A model generated the notes under the pieces. The model worked only from the letters and a program-made list of their open reading frames with translations, was not told the DNA's origin and searched no databases. Below are positions 28,806-50,360 of a DNA stretch of 64,000 nucleotides, piece after piece. The stretch spans positions 887 to 64,886 of IMG/VR virus record IMGVR_UViG_3300020171_000005; one strand, written 5' to 3'. The stretch is from a virus. Lineage: Duplodnaviria > Caudoviricetes. Each line of letters opens with the position of its first letter. Within the stretch, counting starts at the first letter, position 1. The translations under genes and the position numbers were made by a program.

Positions 28806-29525
28806 TTAGAAGCTGGGTATTCCTGAAATTGATGGAGGTAGCGGCGGCCTGGCAGCCAGTATAAAACTCAGTGAATCAGTTATTACTGTTTTCCCTAAGA
28901 TTGCAATCTCAACGTAAAGGACATAGGTAGTTTCAGTGAAGATTATGCCGGGGAACCTGTAGTCAAAGAAGATATCCTTACCTGCTCTTCCTGGCTCCAG
29001 CGTAAACGGCTGAGCTATTTGCCTCAGGCTTTCGTCTAATGGCGGGGATAGCTCTTGCAGCGGTTGCCCAGGGAATAGGGGGGTGATACGTGCCTTGACT
29101 GAGACCCCTCTAATATCGGAGGTTCCTCCATTCCTCAAGGTAAATCCCAGATGGGTTACTTTTGAATATTGTTCAAAGTTCATATCCCACAGGTCTCTAA
29201 CCATGTACCCGTTGTAAATAACCAAGAAGTTGATTATCTCTATTGAATAGGCAATCACTACATCTTCAGTAGCAGTAAAAGTCCCAACGACCACACCTCC
29301 ACAGAGAATCCGGATAAATACTGGGTAGGTCCCAGTAACACTTGGCATGCTTACCTGAAAGTCAACAGGCTTCAACTCCCCGCCAGCCAGATGAAAAGAG
29401 GCCGTGGCCATTACTGTCCATTCAGCTCCCATACAGAGATCGGCAACATAGTCAAAGCCTGCCGTCTTGGGATTGGTAAGTGTTACCGTAGCCCGGTGTA
29501 CGCTGCTTGGCGCGAACTGAGGCAT
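28806..29525 (-). CDS. Ig-like beta-rich putative virion protein
   Basis: N-terminal domain paralogous to 29535..29951 (TNPKT..FDY...VDF.V.MP...ATEDV). Confidence 0.65.
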   Translation of the reverse strand: MPQFAPSSVHRATVTLTNPKTAGFDYVADLCMGAEWTVMATASFHLAGGELKPVDFQVSMPSVTGTYPVFIRILCGGVVVGTFTATEDVVIAYSIEIINFLVIYNGYMVRDLWDMNFEQYSKVTHLGFTLRNGGTSDIRGVSVKARITPLFPGQPLQELSPPLDESLRQIAQPFTLEPGRAGKDIFFDYRFPGIIFTETTYVLYVEIAILGKTVITDSLSFILAARPPLPPSISGIPSF

Positions 29526-29534
29526 AATGCTCCT

Positions 29535-29951
29535 TTAATCCCAGGTTATTTGAGTTACTTTAATGGCAGGGATAATGTATACTGCCACATCTTCGGTAGC
29601 GACAAAGGTTATGAGCAGCGTGCCAAGATGCTTGACTTCAAGGTAGACGTGGAAGGCATCATCCGGGATTGTCAGCACTGGCATATTTACCGAGAAATCC
29701 ACTGACTTGGAGCCCCCCGCAAGTATGGTGAAGTTAATTGCCCCCGATGTGGACACTTTGTTCCCTACAACTTTCCCCAAGTATAACTCAGCCGTGTAAT
29801 CAAATGATGATGTCTTAGGGTTGGTGAATAGGGCGTGAGCCACATGGACCGTCTCCGACTCAAATGAAGGGTCTTCCATCGTCATCTTCTCTATCCTGAC
29901 CTCATCCTCACTACCAGATAGCTTGTTCATCTTCAACTCCATTTCTTTCAT
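29535..29951 (-). CDS. Ig-like beta-rich putative virion protein
   Basis: Paralog of the N-terminus of 28806..29525. Confidence 0.65.
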   Translation of the reverse strand: MKEMELKMNKLSGSEDEVRIEKMTMEDPSFESETVHVAHALFTNPKTSSFDYTAELYLGKVVGNKVSTSGAINFTILAGGSKSVDFSVNMPVLTIPDDAFHVYLEVKHLGTLLITFVATEDVAVYIIPAIKVTQITWD

Positions 29952-29967
29952 TTCCTTTTCCCTCCTC

Positions 29968-30564
29968 TTAAATTACATACCATGGCCAGTAAATCCCAAG
30001 CAGCCTAGGGAGTGGTGGCCCTTCCCAAGGACTCATTGGCAGAAAATCACTAAAGGAAGAGCCATAGTGTTCTCGCCAGGTTTCCTCTGATGCAAGCATT
30101 ATTTGCACTCGGCTGGTCTCTTGAATAACCTCGGCTATGCTGTCGGTCAACCTCAAAAGTAGCATCCGTAGCCCAAAAACACAATCGCAAGCCGATGAGC
30201 TGAACTCAACTGTGGTGAAGGCAGGCTCAGGGGATTGTGGTGGCAAGTAGAAGGCTTGGAATTGTGTTGAGTCCGCCATAAACGTTAGCAGGTCCTCCTC
30301 AACTAGCTGCCCCTCTGGGTCTAAGAAGTAATACATTATGGCATATAGCCTTATCTCAGGCGTAGGGTTGGACATCTCAACGTAGGCCTTGACATTGGTA
30401 TTGGGCACGTATTTTATCATCTCTGGCAAGTCCCAAACTATCTTGCCCAGTTTCTCAGCCTCGGATGGCGGCTCGATTGGGTAGGTAGGGATTTGTAATC
30501 CAACAATAGGCCGTAATTCTATGCCTACAGGCATAGTTGACATTCTTGCTATCTTTACGCCCAC
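29968..30564 (-). CDS. Beta-rich protein with C-terminal PWEGPPLPR...WPW motif
   Basis: Ends DFLPMSPWEGPPLPRLLGIYWPWYVI. Confidence 0.7.
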   Translation of the reverse strand: MGVKIARMSTMPVGIELRPIVGLQIPTYPIEPPSEAEKLGKIVWDLPEMIKYVPNTNVKAYVEMSNPTPEIRLYAIMYYFLDPEGQLVEEDLLTFMADSTQFQAFYLPPQSPEPAFTTVEFSSSACDCVFGLRMLLLRLTDSIAEVIQETSRVQIMLASEETWREHYGSSFSDFLPMSPWEGPPLPRLLGIYWPWYVI

Positions 30565-30570
30565 TTTACT

Positions 30571-30843
30571 TTACTCCCACTCAATTTCAATCTTCCCTAT
30601 TGGCGGTTCGTCAGGATGTACTAATGCCACATGGCTTATCAGCTCATCAAGAGTATCAAACGTTTCAGTACAGTAAGGACAGCTGTAGGCTCCAGGTGGT
30701 GGTGGTGGAGGTGGAGGAGGTGGTGGTGGTTCTTCCTCTTCGTACCAAGGCCATGTCAACCCCATCCACTTTGGGAGTGGGGGGCCTACGAGAGGTGAAG
30801 TGGGGAACCACTCTTCTAGTGTATGTCCCATTAGGTCATCCAT
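30571..30843 (-). CDS. GPPLP-motif, poly-Pro linker and C2H2 zinc-finger protein
   Basis: FPTSPLVGPPLPKWMGLTWPW, poly-Pro run, CPYC...HVALVH. Confidence 0.7.
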   Translation of the reverse strand: MDDLMGHTLEEWFPTSPLVGPPLPKWMGLTWPWYEEEEPPPPPPPPPPPPGAYSCPYCTETFDTLDELISHVALVHPDEPPIGKIEIEWE

Positions 30844-31035
30844 TTATCGCCTCCTGTTCCTCCTCACTAAAGCCCAACCAAACAGAGGCCCCCCGACTCC
30901 AAACAACCCAGCAGTTAACTTCATTATCAGAAAGTAGGTGGGCTCATTAGTGGCAATTTCCATGGCCACGGCAAAGAGTATCCCCACCACACCGGCTGAC
31001 ATTACTGCTATGCTTGTGGCTAGTAGCTTATTCAC
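30844..31035 (-). CDS. Small 2-TM membrane protein
   Basis: Two hydrophobic segments, basic C-terminus. Confidence 0.65.
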   Translation of the reverse strand: MNKLLATSIAVMSAGVVGILFAVAMEIATNEPTYFLIMKLTAGLFGVGGPLFGWALVRRNRRR

Positions 31036-31328
31036 TGGGTGTCTCCTTTCTTCAGGCTGGATCTGATAGCCCCCGATATCCTGTTGCCAAGCACGTCAAA
31101 ACCGGCACCCCCCAGGAATGAGTAAAGGATATCCAGGGGTGCCAGGTGATTGCTGTAGTTAAAAGCTATGGCAAACCCCACGGCAGCGATAACCGCGCGG
31201 ATGATGCTGCTGGCGAACTTTCTAGGGACGAAGGTCTCATTGGAGTCCACCCAGCCGAGCGTGGCGGCTACCAGACCCCCCATTAAGGCCGAAACCGCAA
31301 TCCAGATGATGTTCATTATAAGACACAT
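31032..31328 (-). CDS. Small multi-TM (holin-like or virion membrane) protein
   Basis: Three hydrophobic segments. Confidence 0.6.
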   Translation of the reverse strand: MCLIMNIIWIAVSALMGGLVAATLGWVDSNETFVPRKFASSIIRAVIAAVGFAIAFNYSNHLAPLDILYSFLGGAGFDVLGNRISGAIRSSLKKGDTQ

Positions 31329-32121: not shown

Positions 32122-33972
32122 TTACGGCCCCCACGTGAGCGTTAGTACGCCCCTGCTTCGATACGTTATGGTTACCTGGTCGATTTGGTCATTCGCCCCA
32201 TCATTGGTAAACTGGAGATAGGCATTAAAGGGTATGCCGAAAGGCTTTAATAACCCACCCTCGGTATCCGCAGCCGCATAGATTATAACATCTCTCCTGT
32301 CAGCAGCGGCTGGAGCAGCCACAGCGTCGGCAGCTGGTACATAAGTGGCAAGTGTCCAGTCATGTCCTATCAGTCCACTGATGGTGATGCTCAATATCTC
32401 GGCGCCGTTTGTCCCGCTATCTATGTGAAGCCACTCGGTAGCAGCGGCAAGGATTGCTTGCACACCAGACTGAATTACCCTTATCTGGGAGTCAAGAAGA
32501 ATATTATCAGTGGTTAGAGGAAGATTGGCAGCGGCCAGCTCATCCAGATATCCACCTCTAGCTGCGGTATAAGCTGCTAGGGCTGTAGCCAGAGCATTTG
32601 TCCAGGTAGCATTAGTTAATGCCGTAGCTCCTGGTGCTCTGCTGCTTATAGCGGCGTCCAGAAATGCAGCCCTGGCAGCCGTCAGCTTATTGTGAAGAGT
32701 AGTCGCTCCTTCAATAGCGCCGATAGCAGCCTTTAAGGTATCGACGTCGGCTGGGACATTGCCAGCATCGAGTTCCCCAAGTCGGGCAGCGGTGCAGACA
32801 GAAGCCAGTGCTACTGCCGCAGTGAGGTATCCCGCTTTGGCATCAGTCCATGTGGCATTTGAAAGGGCAGTTGCAGCAGCAGCTCTACTAGATATAGCCA
32901 CATCTAGGAAAGCCGCTTTGGCGGCGGTATAGTTTCCGAGGGCCGTAGCCAGAGCAGCCGTCCATGAGGCTGCCAAGGCGGCACCATCAGTACCTCTCAT
33001 CGCTGCTCCAGCTAGTCCTTCAACCTCAGCCTTGATTGCTGCTAAGCCATTGACAGCATCGTCAATCAAATCAACATAAGCGATAATATTGGCAAGGTCA
33101 GTAGGTATATTCCCCGCATCCAGCTCTGCCAGCCTGAGGGCTGTAATCTGGTCCAAGAGAGCCGCCCTGGCAGCGGTGACTTGTAAGAGCCCAGCCTGGT
33201 TAATATTGTCCAGGTAGCCAGCCCTAGCGGCGGTATAGTTTCCGAGGGCCGTGGCAAGGGCAGCCGTCCAACTTGCTGCAAGGGCGACAGCACCGGCAGA
33301 GAGGTTGTCAAGGTAGCCAATTCTGGCAGCACTGAGTGTTGAGATATTTGGAACTGTAGATAAGTTGGCGTTATTGATATTGTTCAAGTAACCAGCTCTA
33401 GCAGCAGTTAGTTCCCCAGCGCCACCGGCAGCTATGAGGGATAAGCGGTCTATGAGAAGCCCCCTGGCAGCTGTTATTTGGTCAAGGAGGGCTGCCCTGG
33501 CCGCAGTAACCTGTAATAGGCCAACTTGGTTGATGTTGTCGAGATAACCTACTCTAGCCACAGTGAGCTCACCAGCACCACCAGCAGCCAAAAGCGTTAA
33601 TCTATCAATATAACCAAGGCGGGCGGCTGTGATATTGATTAGCTGAGCATTATTGATGTTGTCCAGATAACCGATTCTGGCAGCGGTAAGTGTAGACAGG
33701 TTAGGGATATTCAGCAATTGAGCATTGCCGATGTTATCTAGATAGCCTGCTCTGGCAGCGGTAACCTGAAGAAGCCCCGCCTGGTTAATATTATCAAGGT
33801 AGCCTATTCTAGCTGCGGATAAAGTAGACAGGTTAGGCACAACAAGCAGCTGGGCATTATTGATGTTGTCTAAGTAACCTGCACGAGCCGCCGTGAGCTT
33901 ATCAGCCAACGAGGTTGCTCCCTGATAGCCCAGATAATTCTTTAAGAGTTGTAGCCAGTTAGTATTGCCCAC
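32122..33972 (-). CDS. Ala-rich repeat protein (TAARxGYLDNI repeats), putative spike/fibre
   Basis: More than 15 copies of TAAR(A/I/L)(G/A)(Y/L)LD; C-terminal beta domain. Confidence 0.75.
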   Translation of the reverse strand: MGNTNWLQLLKNYLGYQGATSLADKLTAARAGYLDNINNAQLLVVPNLSTLSAARIGYLDNINQAGLLQVTAARAGYLDNIGNAQLLNIPNLSTLTAARIGYLDNINNAQLINITAARLGYIDRLTLLAAGGAGELTVARVGYLDNINQVGLLQVTAARAALLDQITAARGLLIDRLSLIAAGGAGELTAARAGYLNNINNANLSTVPNISTLSAARIGYLDNLSAGAVALAASWTAALATALGNYTAARAGYLDNINQAGLLQVTAARAALLDQITALRLAELDAGNIPTDLANIIAYVDLIDDAVNGLAAIKAEVEGLAGAAMRGTDGAALAASWTAALATALGNYTAAKAAFLDVAISSRAAAATALSNATWTDAKAGYLTAAVALASVCTAARLGELDAGNVPADVDTLKAAIGAIEGATTLHNKLTAARAAFLDAAISSRAPGATALTNATWTNALATALAAYTAARGGYLDELAAANLPLTTDNILLDSQIRVIQSGVQAILAAATEWLHIDSGTNGAEILSITISGLIGHDWTLATYVPAADAVAAPAAADRRDVIIYAAADTEGGLLKPFGIPFNAYLQFTNDGANDQIDQVTITYRSRGVLTLTWGP

Positions 33973-34746: not shown

Positions 34747-34754
34747 CTATCTCC

Positions 34755-35513: not shown

Positions 35514-36197
35514 TCACATCTGATAAGTGAATGCTGCAATGACAAAGGTAACTGGCCTTGCAGGATCCAAGTTCTCTATGAGTACCTTAAGGTTTCTGGG
35601 GTCAGATAAGTATGGTCTGGTCTGCCTAATAAAGGTCCCAGCTACAAAAGCTGGTGACCAAACATCAAAGTCCTCAGAGTCGTAACCAGCCCCATTGATG
35701 TAATAGATATCCCCGGTATTCCACACATTAGCAATTCCACCACCTAGAGCTGCGGTAACTGTGTTTATGGTATTGGCGGTGATAGGTGCAGTACTACCAT
35801 CTGTGGAGTTAACTACTGTCAGGTCTTCTAAGCCATCGGGGATAGGAAAGTGGTTATTAACATCGGTAAGTACCGCTACCCCCATCCCACCTGTATGAGT
35901 ACCACCAGTGCTGTCACCATAGGATGAAATCACATGAACTCTGATGCCAGCAGTAGCTATTGCATCATACATAACTTCTATGGTGAGGCATAGCTGTTTT
36001 GGGCAATCACTGAGATCCAACGCCACGCAATCATATAATCTAGTAGTAACTCCCGCCAAGATAGTCGCTTGGTCAAGTACCCCAGCAGAGCCCTTACCAC
36101 CTGCTGTCTCGGTTACTGGCAGCGGGTTTAGAGCACTTATATCGGCGCCGCCACCGAAGACGGCTCTTAATACTCTTTGGAACACTGATTCTAGCAC
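35514..36197 (-). CDS. Beta-rich putative virion protein
   Basis: NPLPVT, ITANT...WNTGDIY motifs typical of virion fibres. Confidence 0.65.
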   Translation of the reverse strand: MLESVFQRVLRAVFGGGADISALNPLPVTETAGGKGSAGVLDQATILAGVTTRLYDCVALDLSDCPKQLCLTIEVMYDAIATAGIRVHVISSYGDSTGGTHTGGMGVAVLTDVNNHFPIPDGLEDLTVVNSTDGSTAPITANTINTVTAALGGGIANVWNTGDIYYINGAGYDSEDFDVWSPAFVAGTFIRQTRPYLSDPRNLKVLIENLDPARPVTFVIAAFTYQM

Positions 36198-36496
36198 TAC
36201 ATCTCCCTTAACTTATCTGCATATTTTTGGAGGCGTCCTGGTACCACAGACGTAAAAACACTCATAAATGGTAAAATAAACCAGTGGTAATTGACTAATG
36301 CCTGCGCTAGCTCCCTGAAGTATTTGGCATCTGATTCCAGCCAGCCAGCTACTTTAAGCTGAATCTCCATATCGTCGCCACCTTCTAGCCAATTATAAAC
36401 CCTATCGCGTTCACTGATTAAGATGAATCCCTCCCCATTGAAGTAATTAGCATCAGCCCTGATTATATCGTCGACCAGTTTACTTACTCTCAACAT
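36197..36496 (-). CDS. Hypothetical protein
   Basis: Likely start MLRVSK after GGGGG. Confidence 0.6.
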   Translation of the reverse strand: MLRVSKLVDDIIRADANYFNGEGFILISERDRVYNWLEGGDDMEIQLKVAGWLESDAKYFRELAQALVNYHWFILPFMSVFTSVVPGRLQKYADKLREM

Positions 36497-37163
36497 TCCC
36501 CCCAAGCGGATATACAATAAATAATTCTCCGCATTTCGGGCACATTATAGTCGTTGCCTCACTTGGAACATCAAACTCATGACCACACCACTTACATTTC
36601 ACGGTTTTTGTTGGAGGCAGAGGCGGAGTGCCTACGGCTTCTAATATCATGTATGCTCCCACTTGACCTTCCATATTAGCCCCGCCAAGGTTAGTTACTT
36701 GAAGGTCAAAATCAAAGGAAACCGACCCTGTAGGGTCAAAAGTGGCACTTGAAAACTGAACAACCTCCGGCACATAAAATGGTGTCCCACCTGCTAGTTT
36801 TGCTAAACACAGATGGCGCCATACTCCAGGGACAGGTGGTATTCGTAGTAATAACCAAACCTCTACGTCCTGGTCACAGGCAATCCCAATAGAAATCATG
36901 GTTAATGTATAGCCTACAGGTGTTGAGTATGGTAAATCTATAGCAGTTACGCCATTAACACAATGCACCATAGCTCCTGCAGCAAGGGGGGCTTTGAACC
37001 ATGAGAAGACAGAGGCGACACCGCTAAATGATACCAGGAAGGCAAGTAATGTCTGGTTATACTTGAGAGAGTATCCTGGTCTAATTTCGCCAGAAGAAAG
37101 CTCATCTGTGTAATCAGGCTTACCGATGCCTCTTACTGGAGCATTCCCTTGAACTATTCTCAT
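36480..37163 (-). CDS. Beta-sandwich protein with C-terminal zinc ribbon
   Basis: CKWCGH...CPKCG. Confidence 0.65.
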   Translation of the reverse strand: MRIVQGNAPVRGIGKPDYTDELSSGEIRPGYSLKYNQTLLAFLVSFSGVASVFSWFKAPLAAGAMVHCVNGVTAIDLPYSTPVGYTLTMISIGIACDQDVEVWLLLRIPPVPGVWRHLCLAKLAGGTPFYVPEVVQFSSATFDPTGSVSFDFDLQVTNLGGANMEGQVGAYMILEAVGTPPLPPTKTVKCKWCGHEFDVPSEATTIMCPKCGELFIVYPLGGNVESK

Positions 37164-37678
37164 ACTGCTGCTCCCTCAAGCGCTATTGTCACGGTTATCG
37201 CATGCGTGAACCCACCATCAGTGTTTACCATCTCTACCCATATCTCCTCGTGGTCCTCTACTCGTTCATTGAAGGGGTACGTCGGGGTAGCATTATTGAG
37301 TGATAAGAAATTCTCATTTGGGCAAAACTGCTTAACGCCATGCCCTACTCTAACGTCCACAAGGGCATTACATCCATTCGGCCAATGCGGAGTTATAGAC
37401 TTAATATACCCAGCAAATGGAGCATTCTCCGTCAGCATAGCCCGTGAGCCTACTGCTGGGGGTATCGCTAGGTTAAAGACAAATGGTATCTGCTCAATCT
37501 GTACAGGCATAACTACCCCTCCTAGGCTCTCAATTGCACTTCCTAGACTGCTGACCCTCTCAGCAAGGGCAACTATCCTAGGACCAAGAAAGTCAAGTCG
37601 GTTGTCTATCGAGGTAAACGGTTCTGGGACCCGCTCTCTCTTCGAGATACTTTTGACAAAATCCTCGTATTCTCCCAT
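37160..37678 (-). CDS. Putative single jelly-roll (penton/decoration-like) protein
   Basis: Short N-terminal coiled coil then about 8 beta strands (GYIKSIT...VDVRVG...IWVEMVN...ITVTIAL). Confidence 0.5.
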   Translation of the reverse strand: MGEYEDFVKSISKRERVPEPFTSIDNRLDFLGPRIVALAERVSSLGSAIESLGGVVMPVQIEQIPFVFNLAIPPAVGSRAMLTENAPFAGYIKSITPHWPNGCNALVDVRVGHGVKQFCPNENFLSLNNATPTYPFNERVEDHEEIWVEMVNTDGGFTHAITVTIALEGAAV

Positions 37679-37770: not shown

Positions 37771-38610
37771 CTAGTCCACAGGCTCAAGATCCACAGTGAC
37801 ACATAATCCCGCAAGGGTACCAAGATTACCATCCACCGGGTCAAGGGCTATCCTGTCACCTACTTCGAGTATCTGGGCCCCGGTAGCAACTATTGTACCA
37901 TCCTGCACGGTCTCAGCAACTCCATTACCGTCAAAACCGCCTCCGGCGTTGTCCGTTAGCAGGTTGTCTCCCGTTCCTGGTACCTCTATGCCTTGAAGTC
38001 TCTCAACTTGGATCATGCCGAGTGCATCAGCTGTTGCGGTAGTAAAGACACATCTGGCGGCAACTACCTGGCATCGCTTAGTGGCAGTGAAGAACTTGTC
38101 GTGCATCGCCGCTGTCTGGGGTTGAGCTCCATATAGTATCGCCGTAACGATTACCCGTTCAGTCTCCGCTACTGCTAACCTTGCCCTTATGGGGACCAGC
38201 TCCTCCAGCTCTATGGTTACCTGGACGTTCCTGAGAGCCGCGGGGTTTCCTGTATCCAGTAGACAGATGCGGTCTCCAGCACCCAGGGTCCTGTTGACAA
38301 CGGTAATACCAGTAATGCTACCGTACTGGGGAGTTTCTGCCGCCAGCTGCATGTTAAAGGCCGCTGCAAGCAGAGCATCACCCGCTCCTGGGGCTTCAGC
38401 TGGTTCCAGCTTCTCTGCAGTAAGTGTACAGGCAGCCCCGGCAGCAACGGTATAGACTACCTCCATCCCGACAAAGATATAGCGGTTGGCTGCAGGACAG
38501 ATGAAGATAACTCCGTAGTTAGCTGCCGTCCCCGCTATGGCATCTGGAAGGTGGATTGGGAGTAAAAGCCTCCGGGTTTCGTACATTGCAGTTTTATTTC
38601 TCAGTGTCAT
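37771..38610 (-). CDS. Tandem-duplicated beta-sandwich putative capsid decoration protein
   Basis: Two internal repeats (EKL..EAPGAGD.LL...GDRI.L...VTIEL) shared with 38612..39016. Confidence 0.65.
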   Translation of the reverse strand: MTLRNKTAMYETRRLLLPIHLPDAIAGTAANYGVIFICPAANRYIFVGMEVVYTVAAGAACTLTAEKLEPAEAPGAGDALLAAAFNMQLAAETPQYGSITGITVVNRTLGAGDRICLLDTGNPAALRNVQVTIELEELVPIRARLAVAETERVIVTAILYGAQPQTAAMHDKFFTATKRCQVVAARCVFTTATADALGMIQVERLQGIEVPGTGDNLLTDNAGGGFDGNGVAETVQDGTIVATGAQILEVGDRIALDPVDGNLGTLAGLCVTVDLEPVD

Positions 38611-38611
38611 G

Positions 38612-39016
38612 CTATACCTCCACCAGTTCTACAGTAACACAGACTCCAACCAAAGCGACTAAGCCCACGACATTATCAATCAGGTTAAGCCTGTCCCCAA
38701 CCGCCAACACCATCACTGCCCCTCCAGTTATCGCCGGAAACAGGGGAGTATTGTTTGCTGACGTTAGGAGTGTTTCTGCTGCCAGCGCGTCACCAGCTCC
38801 TGATACCTCAACTCCCTGGAGGCGCTCAAGAATCACCCCTGCTCCTGCGCTAGTGCTTAGGGTTTCGTGGGACTCAGAGACTGATAGCACCTCACATGTG
38901 CGGTCAGCAACGTAGATCTTACCCCAGTTAACGGCAGCCTGAGCCTGAGTTCCCGGAAGGATAGCCACGACACAGAAGCGCCTGGCGGCCCCATAAGTAC
39001 TTCTCTTACTTCTCAT
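38612..39016 (-). CDS. Single-domain paralog of 37771..38610
   Basis: LERLQGVEVSGAGDAL...VGDRLNL...VCVTVEL. Confidence 0.65.
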   Translation of the reverse strand: MRSKRSTYGAARRFCVVAILPGTQAQAAVNWGKIYVADRTCEVLSVSESHETLSTSAGAGVILERLQGVEVSGAGDALAAETLLTSANNTPLFPAITGGAVMVLAVGDRLNLIDNVVGLVALVGVCVTVELVEV

Positions 39017-39044: not shown

Positions 39045-39773
39045 CTACCTGTTCTGCCAGACCTTGACATAGTCAACGGTCAGTAACCGGATATTGGCAG
39101 CCTTATTACGAAGAATTATCCAGGGGGTCAGGGGGTCGGCTGGGGTTATAGCGAGCAGGTGTGTGGCTAACAGAACCCCGTTTACATAGTAGTATGCGTT
39201 CCCAAGCGCATCCAATTGGACCCTGAGGACATAGAAAGTCCCACCTACAGGGAGAATCCCCAGGTCAGTAGCCGCAGGCGCTACGGTGTTTATCACGTTG
39301 ACAGCGGTGAAATTGGGGAAGTTGGCGGCGCTATCAAGTGGGTCGAAACCGATTATCACTGCATCGGCGGAGACGGGAGTTGGGAGAGCAGCTCCGGTTA
39401 GGTTGTAGTCATCGAATGCCGAACCCTGTGCTTCTGTCAGGGAATCATTGAAGCCCAGCTCAATGGTACAACCGGTGGCGACATTCAGGTTTAACCTAGC
39501 TTCAATACCGCAGGCTCGGTTCGCGGTCCAGTTTAGCCCGTGTGCCAGCGTAGCCCAGTCGTCATTAACTGCAGTGGTGGTGTGGACGACAGTTCCATTT
39601 GGGGCAGCTGCAATGGCGATGGTACAACCGGCATCAACATCAACAGCCCATTCATCCTTAAGGATATCACCAAGGAAGTCGTCCTTCAGGAATTGGGTAC
39701 GCTGCAGAGAGGGCTCCCAGTCACCTAATTGCCAGATTCTTGAGCCAGCAATAAAGCCTATCTTTTTTGTCAT
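39045..39773 (-). CDS. Concanavalin/LamG-like beta-sandwich putative virion protein
   Basis: DDFLG...FYVLRV...YYVNGVL.ATH...VDYVKVWQNR. Confidence 0.65.
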   Translation of the reverse strand: MTKKIGFIAGSRIWQLGDWEPSLQRTQFLKDDFLGDILKDEWAVDVDAGCTIAIAAAPNGTVVHTTTAVNDDWATLAHGLNWTANRACGIEARLNLNVATGCTIELGFNDSLTEAQGSAFDDYNLTGAALPTPVSADAVIIGFDPLDSAANFPNFTAVNVINTVAPAATDLGILPVGGTFYVLRVQLDALGNAYYYVNGVLLATHLLAITPADPLTPWIILRNKAANIRLLTVDYVKVWQNR

Positions 39774-39882: not shown

Positions 39883-40233
39883 TTACTCCGCATCCTCATA
39901 CACAAGGTAAACCATGATGTTACCAGCGGCGCTGGCAATCCCATATGGCTGTGAACCTGCTGGTATGATATAGAGAGGGAGTGAATCCCCCTTCAACTCC
40001 TCTGGGTCGTTCCACATCTCGTATTGAGTCGCATGCTCTATCCAGTCAAGGATAACGTTAGCGGGAACGGCAGTCTGATGGCCGAATTGTAACTGGTTTG
40101 GTCCAGCAAATTGGTTGGCGGTTTTTATCTTGTAAACATACCGCCTCATGTTGGCTGGGACATGGGAACCGAAGGCAACACCTGCGTTAGTGATGACTCC
40201 TAGAACCGAATTCAGTCCTCTCTTATCTGGCAT
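39883..40233 (-). CDS. Small beta-sandwich putative virion protein
   Basis: VPANMRRYVYKI...VYLVYED jelly-roll-like pattern. Confidence 0.55.
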   Translation of the reverse strand: MPDKRGLNSVLGVITNAGVAFGSHVPANMRRYVYKIKTANQFAGPNQLQFGHQTAVPANVILDWIEHATQYEMWNDPEELKGDSLPLYIIPAGSQPYGIASAAGNIMVYLVYEDAE

Positions 40234-40937
40234 TAGCCGCCCTCCTGTATCACAGATTTACTGTAGGCAAGCAAGCCATCCCCAACAAGCTCCGAAAGCC
40301 AGTCTGGTATCCTCGCCGGCTCTGGGTCAATACCGCCCATAGTATGCAGACTTCCTGGCCGCCTCAACGTGAGAATATCCCTGACGAGGTCTCTGTTCTT
40401 TATGATGACGTAGGAGTACCTCATGACATCAAAGTTCAGCATAACATTGTCCATGGTATCAAGCAGAGGATTGTAGCACTGGAAGGCGGGGTAAAGCTCA
40501 TGGACGGAGAAGATTTGGCTCTTCAGAGAGAACGGTCCGTCGAAGGGGCTCATCTCACCATCGACGTAGCCAACGTCACCAACTATGGTACGCTGTATGG
40601 CAACTAGGTTCATTCGGTCTTGCCTGGTGGGGTACTGGAAGAAAATCCTAGCCTTCGGCTTGTTAACCCCATAGAAGCTGTGGTAAATCCACCTCTCTTC
40701 TGGGGGCATCAAGTAACGCCGGCCACCGGCATCAGTTACCTCATCCCAGGCAGCGAGGTTACTGGTGGCCGCCAATGGGTAGTCAGCGGCCACCCCAAGA
40801 GAATATGGCTTCACATTGGAAGGTTCCCAGCCTAGGATCCTAAAACAGACCCAACCTTGAGCAAACTGGAGAGCCAAAAGGTAACCCTCTTTCAAGAATC
40901 GATTCTCGTGGCTCTCCTTCACTAGAGCTACGTCCAT
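40233..40937 (-). CDS. Putative capsid-associated protein (candidate second major capsid protein)
   Basis: 234 aa, beta-rich, directly downstream of 41007..41714. Confidence 0.45.
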   Translation of the reverse strand: MDVALVKESHENRFLKEGYLLALQFAQGWVCFRILGWEPSNVKPYSLGVAADYPLAATSNLAAWDEVTDAGGRRYLMPPEERWIYHSFYGVNKPKARIFFQYPTRQDRMNLVAIQRTIVGDVGYVDGEMSPFDGPFSLKSQIFSVHELYPAFQCYNPLLDTMDNVMLNFDVMRYSYVIIKNRDLVRDILTLRRPGSLHTMGGIDPEPARIPDWLSELVGDGLLAYSKSVIQEGG

Positions 40938-41006: not shown

Positions 41007-41714
41007 CTATAACCAGGCTGGTACTTCAGGGTTGAGTAGGCGTCCAAGCCCAACTACCAAGCCACCCAGTTTCAGGTGCTCAGCTCCCACCTCACCATTG
41101 GCAGTTACTAAGAGCTGATCCTCAGGCAACACAATCTTGGTTGGGATTGGAAATACCGGGACCCCATTTACATTGTCACCAATGAGAATGTCACTGACAT
41201 CCTCGGGAATCAGGTTAACACGGCCAATCTGGAAGTGTACCTCCCGGACAAAGGGGACTGGAGCTGTCTGGCTAACCAGATGGGTGATAATAAGGCCGTG
41301 GTCCTCAGACAATGGGAAAGGTGTGGCGGCGTTAAGACCATCCAGGTAGGCTACCCAGGTCCCTATAGCAGCAAAGTTGACCAGCCAGTTGAGCCTTCGG
41401 TTTACTGCGAGAACTCCCCCTGTTTTGGTATGGACTGGTCTTATGAACCCGAAGCCAATCTCTGCATCACCCGGGTTCATGCCGCGGAACTTGCGCCCGT
41501 TAAGCTTTTCCTTGATAGCCATGACACCGGCAACGATGGTGTCAACCCGCTCCTCGAAGATTCGCCTAACCTGGCTGTCAGTGGTAGCCATTAACTTGTT
41601 GAAGTTGTCCTCAAAGATGGCTTGTTCCTCACCATCTAATGCGGCCAGGCTGAACTTCTGCCCATATAGGCTGAGTTCTCTTTTACTTAATGCAGATAGT
41701 CCTGCTATTCTCAT
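41007..41714 (-). CDS. Candidate major capsid protein (helical N-terminus plus jelly-roll-like C-terminus)
   Basis: 235 aa, strong RBS GGGAGG, near head of structural operon; fold inferred only. Confidence 0.45.
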   Translation of the reverse strand: MRIAGLSALSKRELSLYGQKFSLAALDGEEQAIFEDNFNKLMATTDSQVRRIFEERVDTIVAGVMAIKEKLNGRKFRGMNPGDAEIGFGFIRPVHTKTGGVLAVNRRLNWLVNFAAIGTWVAYLDGLNAATPFPLSEDHGLIITHLVSQTAPVPFVREVHFQIGRVNLIPEDVSDILIGDNVNGVPVFPIPTKIVLPEDQLLVTANGEVGAEHLKLGGLVVGLGRLLNPEVPAWL

Positions 41715-41758: not shown

Positions 41759-42055
41759 TTATGACAGGATTTCCTGCCCCAGCGGCCTCTGGGTTACCAT
41801 TGACGATGCTGGTACCTCCCTTACCGTGGTGACAGCACGTCCTCTCCCCGCCCTTCGGAGTGCAGGTTGTGCAGGCATCTCAGGCGGTGCCGGCAGGTCT
41901 GGAATCGCCATCGGGAAATCCGGTACAACGGGGATCTGTTCTGCGGCGTCTAGAAGCATCGTGGAAACAACCGGCGCCCCGGCAGGTAACGCTGCTTCTA
42001 CTGCGGCCGGATACGCTGCTCCTTGGACTAGAATCTCTTTAATATTTGTCGCCAT
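41759..42055 (-). CDS. Pro/Ala-rich small protein, paralog of 42066..42380
   Basis: Shared K.ILV...LP..AP.VS and C-terminal PLG.EILS. Confidence 0.7.
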   Translation of the reverse strand: MATNIKEILVQGAAYPAAVEAALPAGAPVVSTMLLDAAEQIPVVPDFPMAIPDLPAPPEMPAQPALRRAGRGRAVTTVREVPASSMVTQRPLGQEILS

Positions 42056-42065
42056 GTCATCCTCC

Positions 42066-42380
42066 CTATGATAGTATTTCTTCCCCTAGAGGTTTCAGGC
42101 TAATATCTAGTGTTGGAGTCGCTGGAGTAATCTCAACTTTGGTATTGGGATTAAGAGAGATAGGCTCCTCAATACCTCTAATAGGGCCAACTGTAGCCTC
42201 AGAGGTCTGAGAGAATCCTCTAGAGTCTAGTGGCAGCTCAGGAAGGTTAGGGTTTACTGGTAAAGCAGCAGCAATATTGACCATTAACTGAGATACCTTT
42301 GGGGCATTAAGAGGAAGATTCTTCTCGATGTTCCCCGGAACCCCAGCCTGCTTAACCAAGATATCCTTCAATGAAGGCAT
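42066..42380 (-). CDS. Pro-rich small protein, paralog of 41759..42055
   Basis: Ends KPLGEEILS versus RPLGQEILS. Confidence 0.7.
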   Translation of the reverse strand: MPSLKDILVKQAGVPGNIEKNLPLNAPKVSQLMVNIAAALPVNPNLPELPLDSRGFSQTSEATVGPIRGIEEPISLNPNTKVEITPATPTLDISLKPLGEEILS

Positions 42381-42790: not shown

Positions 42791-42819
42791 ATTTTACCAC
42801 AAATAGAATCCCTTGTCAA
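42791..42819 (-). promoter_or_regulatory. sigma70-type promoter heading the putative capsid operon
   Basis: TTGACA-17-TAAAAT with TGn extension. Confidence 0.65.
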
Positions 42820-42841: not shown

Positions 42842-43519
42842 TTACATAATCCCACCCCCAAAAAGAGGAATGAGGGGTGGTGGAGGGAAAGGGAATGCTA
42901 CCTTTGGCCTTGCCCTTACCGATGCAGCGGGGTCACCTAATAGTATAGCGTTATTATGGTTGAATTGCAGACAGCTTTTTATCAACTCATCTTCCTCGAC
43001 CTCAATGTTCCTTAAGTAACCTTCAAGTTCCACATTCAACGCCTCCCCAGCTGTCTCACCATTGAGTAAAGTGTTGAGTCCCTCAACCACTGGCATCAAG
43101 CTAGTAGCTGCCATCTTATCATCCCAAGGGGTTGAGGCATAGTCAGAATCCATCACCCAAACGTAATCGTCCATATAGCCCATGAAGGCAACACAACCAT
43201 TCCTCACTAAATCTGGCCCTAGCTCTACTCCACACTGGCAGGATATAAGTTTAATTACCTTGCCCTTGACTTCCTTAGGATCGTACTTCCCAACCTCAAG
43301 AAGTACATCCTCATGTTGGCCAGTAAAAGCATCCACATCGCCATGACCAGCTCCAACAATGATATCAGACTGGGGAACAGCCAGTCTAAACGGCAAACGC
43401 CGTACCAAAACAGAAAGGAGCTGAACTGGTTCCACCCTAGGAGCGATATACCTCAGGAGGAAACCAGAGGCACTTCTCGTAGCCAAGTCAAAATCCGCCA
43501 TGCATAGTGTAATTGGCAT
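42842..43519 (-). CDS. Clan CD (caspase/gingipain/CHAT-like) cysteine protease homolog
   Basis: IIVGAGHG (His-Gly), IKLISCQCG (Cys), AFMGY, LLGDP as in gingipain-like C25 proteins. Confidence 0.65.
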   Translation of the reverse strand: MPITLCMADFDLATRSASGFLLRYIAPRVEPVQLLSVLVRRLPFRLAVPQSDIIVGAGHGDVDAFTGQHEDVLLEVGKYDPKEVKGKVIKLISCQCGVELGPDLVRNGCVAFMGYMDDYVWVMDSDYASTPWDDKMAATSLMPVVEGLNTLLNGETAGEALNVELEGYLRNIEVEEDELIKSCLQFNHNNAILLGDPAASVRARPKVAFPFPPPPLIPLFGGGIM

Positions 43520-45762: not shown

Positions 45763-45777
45763 ATTTACTTCCTCCTG

Positions 45778-46374: not shown

Positions 46375-46375
46375 T

Positions 46376-46615: not shown

Positions 46616-46635
46616 TTATCATAATGTCTCCTCTT

Positions 46636-47631: not shown

Positions 47632-47635
47632 TTCT

Positions 47636-49642
47636 TCACTCCTCCTTCATCATCAAAGCTAAATCTGGTATCCCAGAGTAGTAAGCGCCAAAGTCAAAGA
47701 CATATTTCTTTCCGTTTCTTAATTGAAATGGGAATTGATACCGGGCAATCGTCGGGGCATAGCCGTCCTCCCATGGGCCAGCTGCGGTAATAGACAGGTC
47801 ATTTACGGTCTCCGGCACGAGCTCCCCCCACTCCCAGATATAATACAGTGGCTGCAGGACTGGCATATAAGGTAAAGCACCTCCGGCTCCACAGACTGCT
47901 CTCCATTGCGTCGCCCCAGCGGGAGCGTTAATAACCCTCAATTGGAATCCGGGTGTAACTATGCTCACGGTCTTGAAAGTCCTATCTACTCCGTAATCGT
48001 CGCCAAGGGTAGTGTGAGCCACCGCCCTGAAATGATACGTTGTATTGGGCTGCAGCCCAGTGAGTTTGGCTGTAAACTCCTGACCAGAATGTAAATAGAT
48101 ATAAGTAGTTTTAGAGCCATAGCTGGTAGTTTTACCCCACTCGAAATGGCAACGCGCCTCATCATGGCTACCAGCGCTGACAAGTCTACCATTAAGGTCG
48201 GCACTATCCCCACCAATACTGGTTGCAGGTAGGGTCTCAACGGTAGGGGCTTCGTAAGCAGCTTCCTTGAAATGAGCTGTAATTAGTCTATGCTCCGTCA
48301 TGGGATAAACCGGTGCAGTTATCTTAGTCGTATCCGTCATCTCCCCTGACCACCGGTCGAAAGCATAGCCCGCATAAGGGTGGGCAGTAACATAGACAGT
48401 GGTGCCACGGGGGAATTGCCAGTTATGCTGTATTCCGCCCGAAGGTGCAGGGTCAGTAGTTACATAGCCAGACCCAGCAGGGTCAATTTTGACCTGAAGA
48501 GTCTCTAGTACCTCTTCGACGACATAATAGACGTCATCCCATTCACCCTCTTTAATGAGATCCCCAGAAACATATATCTGGACTCCGACGTCTCTCCTGT
48601 CTATGGTGCCGGCAACGGCGATGTCATAGAAGCTGTCGACCGTTGCTGTTATACCAGGAGATATGATAAAGTCTGCAGTTTTGGTAGTCAGCAGTGTGCC
48701 ATGAGTCGCGTAAATACTCCCCTCATAAATTAAGACCTTGATGGTGATTGATTGTTGCTTGGTGCATTTGGAAGTCACATTAAAGATGATTTTTACCGTA
48801 TCTCCAGGTTTTGCTTGAGAAGGTGATGCTGTCGGCTGGGTGAGGTCGAAATCGATTACCTCCTCTGGAGCCTTCACATAGTAGACGTCGTCCCACTCAC
48901 TATCCTTTACCATCTGACCGCCGACATAGACTTCAACCTCAACATCTCGCCGGTCTATAGTACCGGCTACGGTGGTATGGGAGAAGTTGAACGTCTTAGT
49001 CTCCCCAGGAGCGATAGCCGTAGCAGGCGAAGTGTACTGTGCCAGCTTGGCACCATGACCGGGCATAAGGCTGCCCTCGTAGATAATGCACTTGACTGTG
49101 ATGTTATAGGACTCAGTGGACTCTGATGTCACCGGGCACATGATTTTAATGACCGTACCCGGACTAACAGGGCTGGCCAGGCTGATTGTCGGTCTAGTTA
49201 AACTGAAACCAAGCTCTTCCTCTGGCACCTCACCGGCAACAATGAAGGTCGTCTTCTCGCTGGCTATTGGGGGGAAAGGTGGCAGCACTATGCTGTCCAA
49301 GCTGTACGTTGGCCCAAGGTAAACCGCTACTTCGAGGATAAACTCCCCCTCACGGTCGAAGCCTTTAGGGAACTTAATCTCGAAGTTACCACCAAAAACG
49401 GTAGCCCCCTCACTTATTGTGGGCCCACCAATTATTGGGATTATCTCCTCCCACCAGCTTTCGGGATAGGTGACCTTAGCTTGCACCCAGACTGGTGCTA
49501 AGAATAGTAGTCCAAATAATTCTACCTTACCTTTTACAGTGAAAGGCTCTTTCAGTCTTGGTGCTTCAGGTGTGTAGGTTATATCCTCCAGGGAGAAAAG
49601 CATATCGCCTGATATTTGAGGGAGTTTAGTCGGTTGTTGCAT
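47636..49642 (-). CDS. Multi-domain Ig-like / InlB-B-repeat / FN3 surface protein
   Basis: Two repeats (IYEGS...HG...GTIDRRDV...EWDDVYYV); A.P..GY.FDRWSG; LTGLQPNTTYHFRAVA FN3. Confidence 0.75.
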   Translation of the reverse strand: MQQPTKLPQISGDMLFSLEDITYTPEAPRLKEPFTVKGKVELFGLLFLAPVWVQAKVTYPESWWEEIIPIIGGPTISEGATVFGGNFEIKFPKGFDREGEFILEVAVYLGPTYSLDSIVLPPFPPIASEKTTFIVAGEVPEEELGFSLTRPTISLASPVSPGTVIKIMCPVTSESTESYNITVKCIIYEGSLMPGHGAKLAQYTSPATAIAPGETKTFNFSHTTVAGTIDRRDVEVEVYVGGQMVKDSEWDDVYYVKAPEEVIDFDLTQPTASPSQAKPGDTVKIIFNVTSKCTKQQSITIKVLIYEGSIYATHGTLLTTKTADFIISPGITATVDSFYDIAVAGTIDRRDVGVQIYVSGDLIKEGEWDDVYYVVEEVLETLQVKIDPAGSGYVTTDPAPSGGIQHNWQFPRGTTVYVTAHPYAGYAFDRWSGEMTDTTKITAPVYPMTEHRLITAHFKEAAYEAPTVETLPATSIGGDSADLNGRLVSAGSHDEARCHFEWGKTTSYGSKTTYIYLHSGQEFTAKLTGLQPNTTYHFRAVAHTTLGDDYGVDRTFKTVSIVTPGFQLRVINAPAGATQWRAVCGAGGALPYMPVLQPLYYIWEWGELVPETVNDLSITAAGPWEDGYAPTIARYQFPFQLRNGKKYVFDFGAYYSGIPDLALMMKEE

Positions 49643-49671
49643 TTCAGTTAACCTCCCGCCTAGAACATTAT

Positions 49672-50007
49672 CTACCTCTTCACAAAGCTATATAATAGAG
49701 CTAGACCGTTTGAAGGTATCTTCTTATCCTCCTCAATGAACCTATCTAGCTCCCCAGGAGTTAGTATTTTCCTTAATTCTGCGTAGTGCAGGTCGGATAT
49801 CTGTCCAGCAAGCAAAGAGCCAACATAAGGAACAATACTGAGTACCCCACTAAGATCAGTAGCCACAGCGTGCTTAACCGCCTTCTTACGACGGTCGTCC
49901 ACACTAGGCAGGCGCATTATGGGAGTTTCTATCCTCGGTAGGTTAATCCCTCCAAAAGGAGTAGGAAGTCCTCTAGCCGGAAGAATCTGCCTAATCCCTC
50001 CAAACAT
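49672..50007 (-). CDS. Hypothetical protein, possibly membrane-associated
   Basis: LSIVPYVGSLLAG segment. Confidence 0.6.
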   Translation of the reverse strand: MFGGIRQILPARGLPTPFGGINLPRIETPIMRLPSVDDRRKKAVKHAVATDLSGVLSIVPYVGSLLAGQISDLHYAELRKILTPGELDRFIEEDKKIPSNGLALLYSFVKR

Positions 50008-50360
50008 TATTTACCTCCTTCAAGAGCACTCAAAAAACTCTCAAGTGAGTTAGCTTTACTTAGCAACTTATTAAGGGTCTCATTATCAGGTAGCTTTTCC
50101 AACATAGGGAGGGCACTGGCCAACCTATCAAGGGTTTTTGCATCAGGGACCTTCTTCAAGAGCCTCTCCATGTTCTTGATGTTCCCATCACCTAGTAGCT
50201 TTTCTAACTGGGGGATAAAAGGGACCAGGCTATTGATAGTAGTATTCAGTTGCTGAAGAGTACTATCACTGGGAAGTTTCTCAGCTAGTTCCAGGAACTT
50301 TTTAATATTACTTGGCCCAGACTGAACCACATCTTTAAGTAAATCTTGCAGAGCGCCCAT
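50007..50360 (-). CDS. Helical repeat protein (DUF1641-like)
   Basis: Three EKLP(S/D)..TL..L repeats. Confidence 0.6.
   Translation of the reverse strand: MGALQDLLKDVVQSGPSNIKKFLELAEKLPSDSTLQQLNTTINSLVPFIPQLEKLLGDGNIKNMERLLKKVPDAKTLDRLASALPMLEKLPDNETLNKLLSKANSLESFLSALEGGK

Follow-up and report, generated by a model that had tools for sequence, protein, structure and literature searches.

Gene content of the co-oriented block

The window analyzed here is a stretch of 64,000 nucleotides that lacks only the first 886 bases of a 64,886-bp IMG/VR record, leaving just 759 unique bases outside it. The record carries an exact 127-bp direct terminal repeat at its ends, is assigned to the DTR class in IMG/VR, and has a CheckV completeness of 100%. 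A first-pass annotation of the window had cautioned that the genome continues beyond it, a caveat that can be withdrawn given the terminal repeat and the completeness estimate. The source is most likely a complete 65-kb uncultured bacterial virus with circular or terminally redundant dsDNA.

The block under study comprises 38 minus-strand open reading frames spanning 20,784 of its 21,555 bases, with a GGAGG-type ribosome-binding site ahead of almost every one (Table 1). The earlier description of about 35 co-oriented genes, mostly of 110-280 aa, is confirmed, with a count of 38 genes, of which 22 encode products in that size range. A perfect sigma-70 consensus promoter precedes the first gene, and a second promoter-like site lies upstream of an internal run of genes encoding proteins of 117, 104, 98, 235, 234, and 116 aa, although the 20 promoter-like sites in total are not above the number in shuffled sequence (15.0, sd 4.6). 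Three small genes intervene between this second site and the 235/234-aa pair, and the pair therefore does not directly follow a promoter, as had been proposed. Only 3 of the 38 proteins have a hydrophobic stretch beginning within the first 20 residues, which indicates that the module set is not secreted; we count the absence of secreted-type N-termini as support for cytoplasmic assembly. A lipid-type biosynthesis cassette adjoins the module.

Table 1. Features of the co-oriented gene block and its promoters (positions in the window; basis or supporting observation in the last column).
Feature	Position	Strand	Basis
Putative virion/morphogenesis operon, 38 co-oriented genes, 96% coding	28806..50360	-	ORF layout; hallmark families absent
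Sigma-70 consensus promoter TTGACA-17-TATAAT, 12/12, upstream of first operon gene	50385..50413	-	Promoter scan
668-aa protein, putative adhesin/surface protein	47636..49642	-	Repeated beta domains, InlB B-repeat, FN3-like domain; homologues in 14 loci
225-aa enzyme-like protein, very strongly conserved	42842..43519	-	Invariant D52, H59, C94, D118, D124, D126, D134, C183
Second promoter-like site, 11/12, extended -10 TG	42791..42819	-	Promoter scan
Two paralogous small proteins, 104 and 98 aa, directly upstream of 235-aa gene	41759..42380	-	Common C-terminal PLGxEILS ending
235-aa core protein, candidate major capsid protein	41007..41714	-	N-terminal helices and 8-strand jelly-roll sandwich
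234-aa core protein, candidate second capsid protein	40233..40937	-	Always downstream neighbor of 235-aa gene
116-aa core protein, candidate vertex or minor capsid protein	39883..40233	-	Abuts/overlaps 234-aa gene
242-aa beta-rich protein	39045..39773	-	Family in 9 loci
134-aa and 279-aa genes, candidate spike, turret, or cement protein	37771..39016	-	Three homologous jelly-roll domains
172-aa protein (37160..37678) and paralogous 227-aa proteins, one with C-terminal zinc ribbon	35514..37678	-	Pfam; comparison with 59-kb relative
616-aa fiber-like protein	32122..33972	-	14 AAR-x-G-Y-L-D-type repeats, then beta-rich C-terminal domain
Two small membrane proteins, putatively holin-like or virion membrane	31032-31328 (98 aa); 30844-31035 (63 aa, basic C-terminus)	-	Hydrophobicity scan
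Two paralogous beta-rich proteins (239 and 138 aa), operon end	28806..29951	-	Paralogy

Elsewhere the genome encodes a phage-type PolA, Sak4, an exonuclease, ThyX, a dCMP deaminase, and an integrase. The UDG-PolA protein is 30-36% identical to siphophage polymerases, bearing out the view that a virion-like module is paired here with tailed-phage-type replication genes. The fiber-like repeats noted earlier were likewise recovered, as the 14 motif copies of the 616-aa protein. Small transmembrane proteins are present as described, but only two clear examples were found among the 38 products; these two, at the operon end, may be holins as readily as virion membrane proteins.

The 134-aa and 279-aa products correspond to a single chain of about 415-424 aa in eight relatives, and the best structural matches of their triple jelly-roll domains include tailed-phage cement proteins and tail-fiber tips. 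The 225-aa protein belongs to a family of 453 proteins, and its sole PDB hint is a non-significant match to VPS29, of metallophosphoesterase fold; on our own reading of the residue pattern it may be a Cys/His protease. The 104/98-aa family occurs in 32 loci and, judged by position, contains candidate scaffold-like or internal proteins.

A conserved three-gene cassette and its relatives

The 235-aa gene is followed, after a gap of about 58 nt, by the 234-aa gene and then by the abutting 116-aa gene, an order conserved in about 57 metagenomic loci. The 234-aa gene follows the 235-aa gene in 57 of 57 loci with a gap of 11-303 nt, and the 116-aa gene abuts or overlaps the 234-aa gene in 47 of 48. 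This invariant 235-234-116 cassette is the defining trait of the lineage. Relatives of the genome include a complete 59-kb genome, about 80 metagenomic loci, and 106 representative clusters of the 235-aa family; the core families are uncharacterized, sizeable, and found in sediment and groundwater metagenomes.

Structure prediction gives the 235-aa protein, the most widespread of the putative particle proteins, a helical N-terminal arm joined to a jelly-roll sandwich. Its top structural match is an icosahedral shell protein, and no HK97 capsid protein was among the fold-search matches listed. Of the four candidate proteins for which a jelly-roll fold had been anticipated, this is the one that was modeled, and it has that fold. 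Profile searches of the PDB with the 235-aa family found nothing, tblastn searches of 50,697 phage records with the 235- and 234-aa proteins gave no match, and no kinship between these two families was detectable.

The complete relative (G001; 59,359 bp with a 109-bp repeat) is likewise handled as a complete virus by IMG/VR and CheckV. By BLAST, the two genomes have in common only the genes for the 235-, 234-, 116-, and 172-aa proteins, precisely the four singled out in the first-pass annotation. The resemblance to the 172-aa protein lies in its C-terminal domain, and iterated HMM searches add the 227-aa family. The replication genes of G001 are different and comprise DnaB, RecT, RusA, Ku, and ligase.

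These comparisons bear on whether the block encodes a virion. Its products could instead form an intracellular, adhesive, or cell-surface assembly, in which case the genome would be a plasmid-like or integrative element equipped with replication genes of phage type. The circular replicon does carry a ParA/Mrp-like ATPase and an integrase, and structural matches of the module proteins include Ena endospore appendages, exosporium ExsFA/BclA, carbohydrate-binding modules, and adhesin-type domains. Nevertheless, the module proteins lack signal-peptide-like N-termini, PHROGs and Pfam searches of the genome ORFs found no conjugation or secretion families, and the genes for replication and nucleotide metabolism are of kinds usual in phages. 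The module has moreover been exchanged onto different replication modules in the manner of viral structural modules, and IMG/VR and CheckV rate both genomes as complete viruses. We consider a non-virion assembly unlikely.

The virus probably infects a bacterium of the Chloroflexota (Dehalococcoidia). Six of seven genome-collection matches fall in Chloroflexota/Dehalococcoidia bins, one relative of the 225-aa protein is labeled Dehalococcoidales, and the perfect sigma-70 promoter is counted with this evidence. Host labels are mixed, with one match in an Aenigmatarchaeota bin and single proteins labeled Thorarchaeota and Gammaproteobacteria, and a sample of 401 genomes from the class yielded the 235-aa family only once, in the genome already known to carry it.

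Packaging, capsid, and tail families

Among the 38 module proteins, PHROGs gave a single weak match (E 0.00099) to a family of unknown function, Pfam gave only zinc-finger and InlB-B-repeat/FN3-like matches, and NCBIfam gave none for the 14 proteins searched. No terminase, portal, HK97 capsid, or tail family was found by PHROGs and Pfam among 87 ORFs from this genome. Searches of all six frames of the complete sequence at E<=1, in which control genomes gave matches, returned no TerL_ATPase, Terminase_6N, HK97 Phage_capsid (PF05065), Phage_portal (PF04860), FtsK_SpoIIIE, or Pox_A32; other portal families were covered by the PHROGs and Pfam ORF scans, without a match. For the large terminase (PF03354, PF03237) and the FtsK/HerA-A32 packaging ATPase (PF01580, PF04665), the same searches also gave no matches in G001. 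Terminase, portal, and capsid families were equally absent from the 79 ORFs of G001, from 55 ORFs of at least 280 aa in 17 large loci, and from a 35.8-kb contig. A Walker-A scan of the whole genome identified as P-loop proteins only a ParA/Mrp-like protein, an AAA+ protein, a DinG/XPD-like helicase, and a Sak4-like protein. The first-pass statements that the block lacks terminase, portal, HK97 capsid, and tail genes and that no A32/FtsK-type ATPase is visible thus extend to the complete genome, where a search for a terminase/portal set versus an FtsK-HerA ATPase found neither. No candidate for a DNA-condensing or nucleocapsid protein was identified in the genome.

Could this be a tailed phage in which the capsid, portal, terminase, and tail genes have become too divergent to recognize? 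The structural protein with the strongest conservation does not adopt the HK97 fold, and the TerL, portal, and HK97 searches were negative in six frames of two complete genomes. The only ORFs longer than 407 aa encode PolA, the helicase, the 616-aa fiber, and the 668-aa Ig-type protein; the ORFs of 386, 391, and 407 aa lack a P-loop, and neither a helical protein as long as a tape measure nor a sheath or tube family was found. We regard a diverged tailed phage as highly improbable on these grounds, even though the replication genes are nearest to those of siphophages, some jelly-roll matches are tailed-phage cement and tail-fiber proteins, and the order of enzyme-like gene, small proteins, core protein, fibers, and holin-like genes recalls a tailed-phage late operon.

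The absence of a packaging ATPase of any kind is also what might be expected of a virion of another architecture, whether enveloped, pleomorphic, filamentous, or otherwise unknown, in which the jelly-rolls would be spikes, fibers, or matrix rather than an icosahedral shell. The jelly-roll domains match capsid proteins no better than they match fiber tips, cement proteins, and TNF/C1q-like knobs, the lipid-type cassette stands beside the module, and Dehalococcoides hosts the non-tailed IME1 elements, proposed to be filamentous or budding (bioRxiv 10.64898/2026.09.15.751708). Set against this are the top structural match of the core protein to an icosahedral shell protein, the paucity of membrane proteins (2 clear among 38), and general Pfam and PHROGs scans of the genome ORFs that list no pI/Zot-type ATPase. 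Some 35 soluble beta-rich proteins would, in addition, exceed the repertoire of the pleomorphic and filamentous viruses generally known. Another architecture is accordingly rather unlikely in our estimation.

Particle assembly and comparison with known viruses

The genome probably belongs to a new bacterial virus lineage, large, tailless, and of jelly-roll type, a conclusion we hold with guarded confidence. The 21.5-kb block would be the late, particle-building operon of a 64.8-kb dsDNA bacterial virus from an undescribed lineage without HK97-capsid, portal, and terminase machinery. The shell would be formed by the 235-aa protein, with the 234-aa protein as its probable partner and the 116-aa protein in a minor role or at the vertices. 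Host-binding surface spikes may be provided by the triple jelly-roll protein, the 616-aa repeat fiber, and the 668-aa Ig/FN3-type protein, and the 225-aa enzyme-like protein and the small proteins encoded upstream of the 235-aa gene may act in assembly. The two terminal small membrane proteins could function in lysis or line a membrane. Because neither a terminase nor an FtsK/A32 ATPase is present, the DNA would probably be enclosed through condensation and co-assembly, as in Sulfolobus polyhedral virus 1 (SPV1), and not pumped into a preformed shell.

To our knowledge, nearly all bacterial dsDNA viruses larger than 40 kb are tailed phages, and the tailless jelly-roll bacterial viruses we know of have genomes of about 10-44 kb and, in nearly all cases, a packaging ATPase. 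Descriptions of the jelly-roll shell design are so far known only from viruses whose genomes are much smaller. The UDG-PolA siphophages of Serratia, Pseudomonas, and others resemble this virus in the polymerase at 30-36% identity, the adjacent dCMP deaminase, Sak4, exonuclease, and ThyX, but none of their structural genes are found here.

The Helvetiavirae (Sphaerolipoviridae, Simuloviridae, and Matshushitaviridae, including SH1, HCIV-1, and P23-77) are tailless dsDNA viruses with two adjacent capsid genes encoding roughly 170-290 aa, an FtsK/HerA-type packaging ATPase, and genomes of 16-31 kb. The present genome is two to four times larger and has no FtsK/HerA ATPase, and for want of this defining feature the analogy to Sphaerolipoviridae drawn in the first-pass annotation fails. 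The FtsK/HerA-A32 type of packaging ATPase is likewise a hallmark of the Bamfordvirae (PRD1, PM2, and STIV type), from which the present genome differs in the same respect. SSIP-1 is tailless with a large genome of about 44 kb. In PMC6356626, SSIP-1 is described as a membrane-containing bacterial virus with two capsid-protein types and hardly any similarity to GenBank entries, and P23-77 as having two single-beta-barrel capsid proteins. IME1 of Dehalococcoides is a proposed non-tailed lineage from the same host class without tailed-phage hallmark genes; its elements are 21-28 kb, with a pI-like ATPase and numerous small membrane proteins as defining features (bioRxiv 10.64898/2026.09.15.751708), in contrast to a 65-kb genome with a mostly soluble beta-rich module in which general Pfam and PHROGs ORF scans list no pI/Zot.

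SPV1 (Portogloboviridae, PDB 6OJ0) has circular dsDNA and a shell of single-jelly-roll VP4 hexamers and VP10 pentamers, and its published gene list does not include a DNA-packaging ATPase (PMC8459092). Its shell protein resembles the 235-aa protein by a weak structural match, with no sequence similarity. Portogloboviruses are further characterized by an inner lipid layer and by a nucleoprotein core with A-form DNA. SPV1 has hyperthermophilic archaeal hosts, a 20-kb genome, and no polymerase of its own (PMC8459092), whereas the present genome is 64.8 kb, with its own PolA, bacterial-type promoters, and six of seven binned relatives in Chloroflexota. It is possible, although doubtful, that these viruses form a new high-rank lineage of large tailless Chloroflexota dsDNA viruses with a portoglobovirus-akin single-jelly-roll shell, enclosing 60-65 kb without a packaging motor, and hence by condensation and co-assembly in place of ATP-driven packaging, and combining the same particle module with unrelated replication modules. 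Neither PHROGs nor Pfam detects the core families, and standard virome pipelines would therefore mislabel or miss such viruses, for which the 235-234-116 cassette offers a ready marker. If correct, a 65-kb jelly-roll bacterial virus without terminase, portal, or packaging ATPase would widen the size range of this build, raise the question of how DNA enters the particle, and tie bacterial viruses to the archaeal shell type of SPV1.

Genome layout and the search for hallmark genes

The record is a single contig of 64,886 bp, almost all of it inside the window, with 64,759 unique bases. Because 127 bases are identical at both ends as a direct terminal repeat, the genome is complete and either circular or terminally redundant; IMG/VR classes it under direct terminal repeats, and CheckV completeness is 100%. 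Examination of the module revealed 38 ORFs covering 96% of the stretch, 22 of them encoding proteins of 110-280 aa, and a GGAGG-type ribosome-binding site lies before almost every one. Two promoter candidates were located on the same strand, and promoter-like sites overall were not above chance (20 versus 15.0, sd 4.6, in shuffles). The window contains no tRNA genes. Among the sequencing runs searched, the stretch was present only in the probable source sample, a groundwater metagenome, and no RNA runs containing it were listed.

Features of the genome (positions in the window unless stated otherwise; sizes in aa serve as gene names)
Feature	Position	Strand	Remark
Module (putative late operon)	28806-50360	minus	38 ORFs
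Promoter TTGACA-17-TATAAT	50413-50385	minus	perfect; directly ahead of first module gene
Promoter-like site	42819-42791	minus	11/12, extended -10; ahead of 117-104-98-235-234-116 aa run
668-aa protein	47636-49642	minus	
225-aa protein	42842-43519	minus	directly upstream of second promoter
235-aa protein	41007-41714	minus	
234-aa protein	40233-40937	minus	
116-aa protein	39883-40233	minus	
Triple jelly-roll genes (134 + 279 aa)	37771-39016	minus	279-aa gene in other frame, 1 base apart
616-aa protein	32122-33972	minus	
Small membrane proteins	31032-31328, 30844-31035	minus	near operon end
Peptide-bearing ORFs	47084-47371, 29968-30564, 30571-30843, 52604-52864, 57465-57800		peptide at C-terminus in 29968-30564
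Peptide-bearing ORF	genome bases 3-218		within terminal repeat
Nucleotide-metabolism cluster	22181-25915		
Second, divergent ThyA-like gene	24672-25469		under Pfam cut-off
Biosynthetic cassette	50381-56717		directly upstream of module
Type III polyketide synthase (PKS)-like gene	55039-56085		
UbiA/MenA-type prenyltransferase	53096-53992		
Thioester-reductase/OleD-like SDR	50381-51328		
Polytopic membrane protein	56064-56717		

The 38 module proteins drew no named family from PHROGs, Pfam or, for the 14 of them submitted to it, NCBIfam, except for zinc fingers, InlB-B-repeat/FN3-like matches in the 668-aa protein and a single weak match (E 0.00099) to a PHROG of no known function. Six-frame searches of the whole genome with TerL_ATPase, Terminase_6N, HK97 Phage_capsid, Phage_portal, FtsK_SpoIIIE and Pox_A32 returned nothing at E<=1, and control genomes were matched in the same searches. 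The first-pass annotation had recognized neither a terminase or portal nor an FtsK-type ATPase in the module, and its observation extends to the flanks, as neither is found anywhere in the complete genome at that threshold. A Walker-A scan of the genome found only four NTPases, these being ParA/Mrp-like, AAA+, DinG/XPD-like helicase and Sak4-like proteins. The only ORFs longer than 407 aa encode PolA, the helicase, the 668-aa protein and the 616-aa fibre, and those of 386, 391 and 407 aa are without a P-loop.

Outside the module lie phage-type replication genes (UDG-PolA, the Sak4-like protein, a PD-(D/E)XK exonuclease and the DinG/XPD-like helicase), nucleotide genes, a tyrosine integrase, and the ParA/Mrp-like ATPase and AAA+ protein. 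PolA is 30-36% identical to siphophage polymerases, and in those siphophages the dCMP deaminase also adjoins PolA. A tailed phage could carry such a replication set, yet one whose virion genes have diverged beyond recognition by searches that matched the control genomes is, in our judgement, highly improbable. The nucleotide-metabolism cluster comprises MazG/dUTPase-like, ThyX, 276-aa (phrog_13667), ThyA-like and dCMP deaminase genes, and its two adjacent thymidylate-synthase-type enzymes hint that the DNA carries a modified pyrimidine.

The 235-234-116 cassette and its relatives

The 235-aa protein had 130 relatives at E<=0.001 in a set of 5.8 billion proteins, most of them sharing 60-85% identity with it and originating in sediment, subsurface and groundwater metagenomes. 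A profile search of 1.84 billion representatives gave 106 clusters at E<=0.001, of which 67 passed 1e-10 and 28 passed 1e-30. Two apparent relatives were set aside: P0135, a lysozyme-like N-terminus joined mid-domain to the 235 family on a 1.6-kb contig, was treated as a probable assembly chimera, and P0196, a 5,282-aa adhesin, was a repeat artefact of the profile search. Among 84 family members there was no real match to PHROGs, one member having matched an unrelated family at E 0.0074. PDB profile searches with the 235, 234 and 225 families gave nothing significant, and neither 235 nor 234 matched any of 50,697 phage records by tblastn. The ESM Atlas contains both proteins, without structures; the feature matches of 235 were unnamed clusters labelled viral, and all feature scores for 234 were below 0.85. 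By hhalign, the 235, 234, 116 and triple-jelly-roll families showed no relation to one another, and the 234-, 116- and 172-aa proteins had no profile similarity to the two families modelled here. Complex prediction with the 235 and 234 families (score 0.00, mark 0.32) spoke neither for nor against binding.

Gene order was compared in 90 non-redundant loci, 8 of 98 having been left out as duplicates (BLAST database). The 234 gene lies downstream of 235 on the same strand in all 57 loci with both, at gaps of 11-303 nt, and the 116 gene abuts or overlaps 234 in 47 of 48. Where a 235-family gene had at least 900 nt downstream, a 234-family gene was in the locus in 51 of 53 cases, the exceptions being L019 and L069. 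A 24-kb IMG/VR contig (L001/L004) encodes a 235 protein only 41% identical to ours beside neighbours at 53-77% (234, 53%; 116, 76%; 242, 63%; 279, 68%), a mosaicism suggesting that sub-lineages have exchanged this gene for one another's 235.

A second complete genome of the lineage, G001 (59,359 bp, 109-bp repeat, CheckV 100%), has in common with ours only the 235, 234, 116 and 172-aa genes by BLAST, and additionally a 227-aa family by iterated HMM. Its replication genes are entirely different (DnaB, RecT, RusA, Ku and an ATP-dependent ligase), which indicates that a conserved particle-type cassette moves between unrelated replication modules, in the manner of viral structural modules. Terminase, portal and capsid families were found in none of the 79 G001 ORFs, in none of 55 ORFs measuring 280 aa or more in 17 large loci, and neither on a 35.8-kb contig from a Dehalococcoidia bin nor in a related element on another contig of that bin. 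A rival reading, in which a plasmid-like element carries genes for a protein assembly that is not viral, we consider rather unlikely. Among the 38 module proteins, only 3 show a hydrophobic stretch that begins within the first 20 residues, which argues against a secreted surface structure. G001 (L015-L016) and a further relative, L099, also carry an E2/JAB/ThiF gene triad (ubiquitin-like conjugation), and G001 a MoxR-VWA pair besides its Ku and ligase; our genome lacks all of these.

Predicted folds and a candidate particle

The 235-aa protein was modelled from an alignment of 61 sequences (pLDDT 88.2, pTM 0.87) as an eight-strand sandwich preceded by helices at residues 28-70. Foldseek placed birnavirus VP2 at the top (E 3e-4, TM 0.29), and BFVD returned generic beta-sandwich matches only. 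The 134-aa protein is paralogous to each half of the 279-aa protein, and in 8 of 28 relatives (P0003, P0005, P0009, P0011, P0016, P0017, P0020 and P0021) the two genes are fused into a single 414-424-aa ORF, so that the two forms are a natural split/fusion pair. The P0005 fusion was modelled as three jelly-roll domains (pLDDT 81.2, pTM 0.83), with single-chain TNF/C1q trimers as top Foldseek matches (E 6e-6, TM 0.21). A TNF-like pseudo-trimer was not supported at this TM, with VIA aligning one domain only; since no chain matched more than one domain, the three-domain arrangement is without a solved counterpart among the structures searched.

With somewhat more confidence than doubt, we read the module as the late operon of a large tailless bacterial virus from a new lineage, in which the 235-aa jelly-roll protein, probably joined by 234 and 116, serves as a shell protein. 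A virion of another architecture, built from the same operon, is an unlikely alternative. For the tailless jelly-roll virus, the particle surface would bear spikes of the jelly-roll type, a fibre with repeats and Ig-type adhesins. Because neither a terminase nor an FtsK/A32 ATPase is present, the probable way of enclosing the DNA, by our inference, is condensation and co-assembly, the route of Sulfolobus polyhedral virus 1 (SPV1). The 616-aa protein is fibre-like, with 14 AAR-x-G-Y-L-D-type repeats and a beta-rich C-terminal domain, and the 668-aa protein contains repeated beta domains.

The 225-aa protein is the most strongly conserved of the group. Its family numbers 453 proteins, with identities of 68% or more throughout the best 120; Asp, His and Cys residues are invariant, and the tail is Pro-rich. 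The protein had no Pfam match and belongs to no known family; its best PDB profile match, VPS29 (metallophosphoesterase fold), was non-significant at E 0.094. From pattern-reading, H59 and C94 are a possible protease dyad. The two small membrane proteins could be holins or virion membrane proteins. PHROGs and Pfam identified no endolysin family, which would be compatible with a Dehalococcoidia host devoid of a cell wall.

One peptide, roughly 25 residues long (LPMxPxEGPPLP[RK]xLxIxWPW[RK][RK]), is found at either the N- or the C-terminus in six otherwise unrelated small ORFs, and in 11 ORFs from 5 of the 90 related loci, mostly at the extreme C-terminus (0 in 20 shuffles). One of the six, a 90-aa ORF (30571-30843), combines its GPPLP..WP motif with a 12-proline run and a C2H2 zinc finger under Pfam cut-offs. 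The peptide looks like a shared targeting or docking tag, and one idea is that it loads cargo into the particle. The PKS and SDR genes of the neighbouring biosynthetic cassette also adjoin the module in L028 and in contig C116 of the Dehalococcoidia bin G002. From its gene families, the cassette could make a prenylated phenolic lipid or quinone; a link to a virion membrane is speculation.

Host and comparison with known viruses

In a species-genome collection, six of seven matches fell in Dehalococcoidales, Dehalococcoidia or Chloroflexota bins and one in an Aenigmatarchaeota bin, binning of viral contigs being unreliable. Single-protein labels were Dehalococcoidales, Thorarchaeota and Gammaproteobacteria. 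Of 401 genomes sampled from the class, just one contained the 235 family, the one already known, and integrase-flanking DNA gave only two chance-level matches of 27-35 nt against these 401. The 35.8-kb contig is without host genes. The consensus sigma-70 promoter, like the resemblance of PolA to bacterial-phage enzymes, speaks for a bacterial host. An archaeal host, raised by weak C2H2 zinc-finger/HVO-type matches, was dropped in view of that promoter and the Chloroflexota bins. G002 holds two different elements of the lineage, on contigs C25 (L010/L099) and C116 (L102/L103). The ParA, PKS, SDR, 114-aa, 668-like, 225 and 98-aa genes of our genome are also on C116, together with a diverged 235; after them come metabolic genes, some for sugar nucleotides, which may belong to the host.

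No published description of the lineage came up in full-text searches of the literature. The genome is set apart from Caudoviricetes by having no terminase, portal or HK97 capsid, and from the ATPase-bearing jelly-roll viruses of Helvetiavirae and Bamfordvirae by lacking that ATPase. The smaller IME1 elements of Dehalococcoides, for which a pI-like ATPase is the defining feature (bioRxiv 10.64898/2026.09.15.751708), belong to a separate lineage. From Portogloboviridae, the family of SPV1, our genome differs in host, in genome size and in having its own polymerase.
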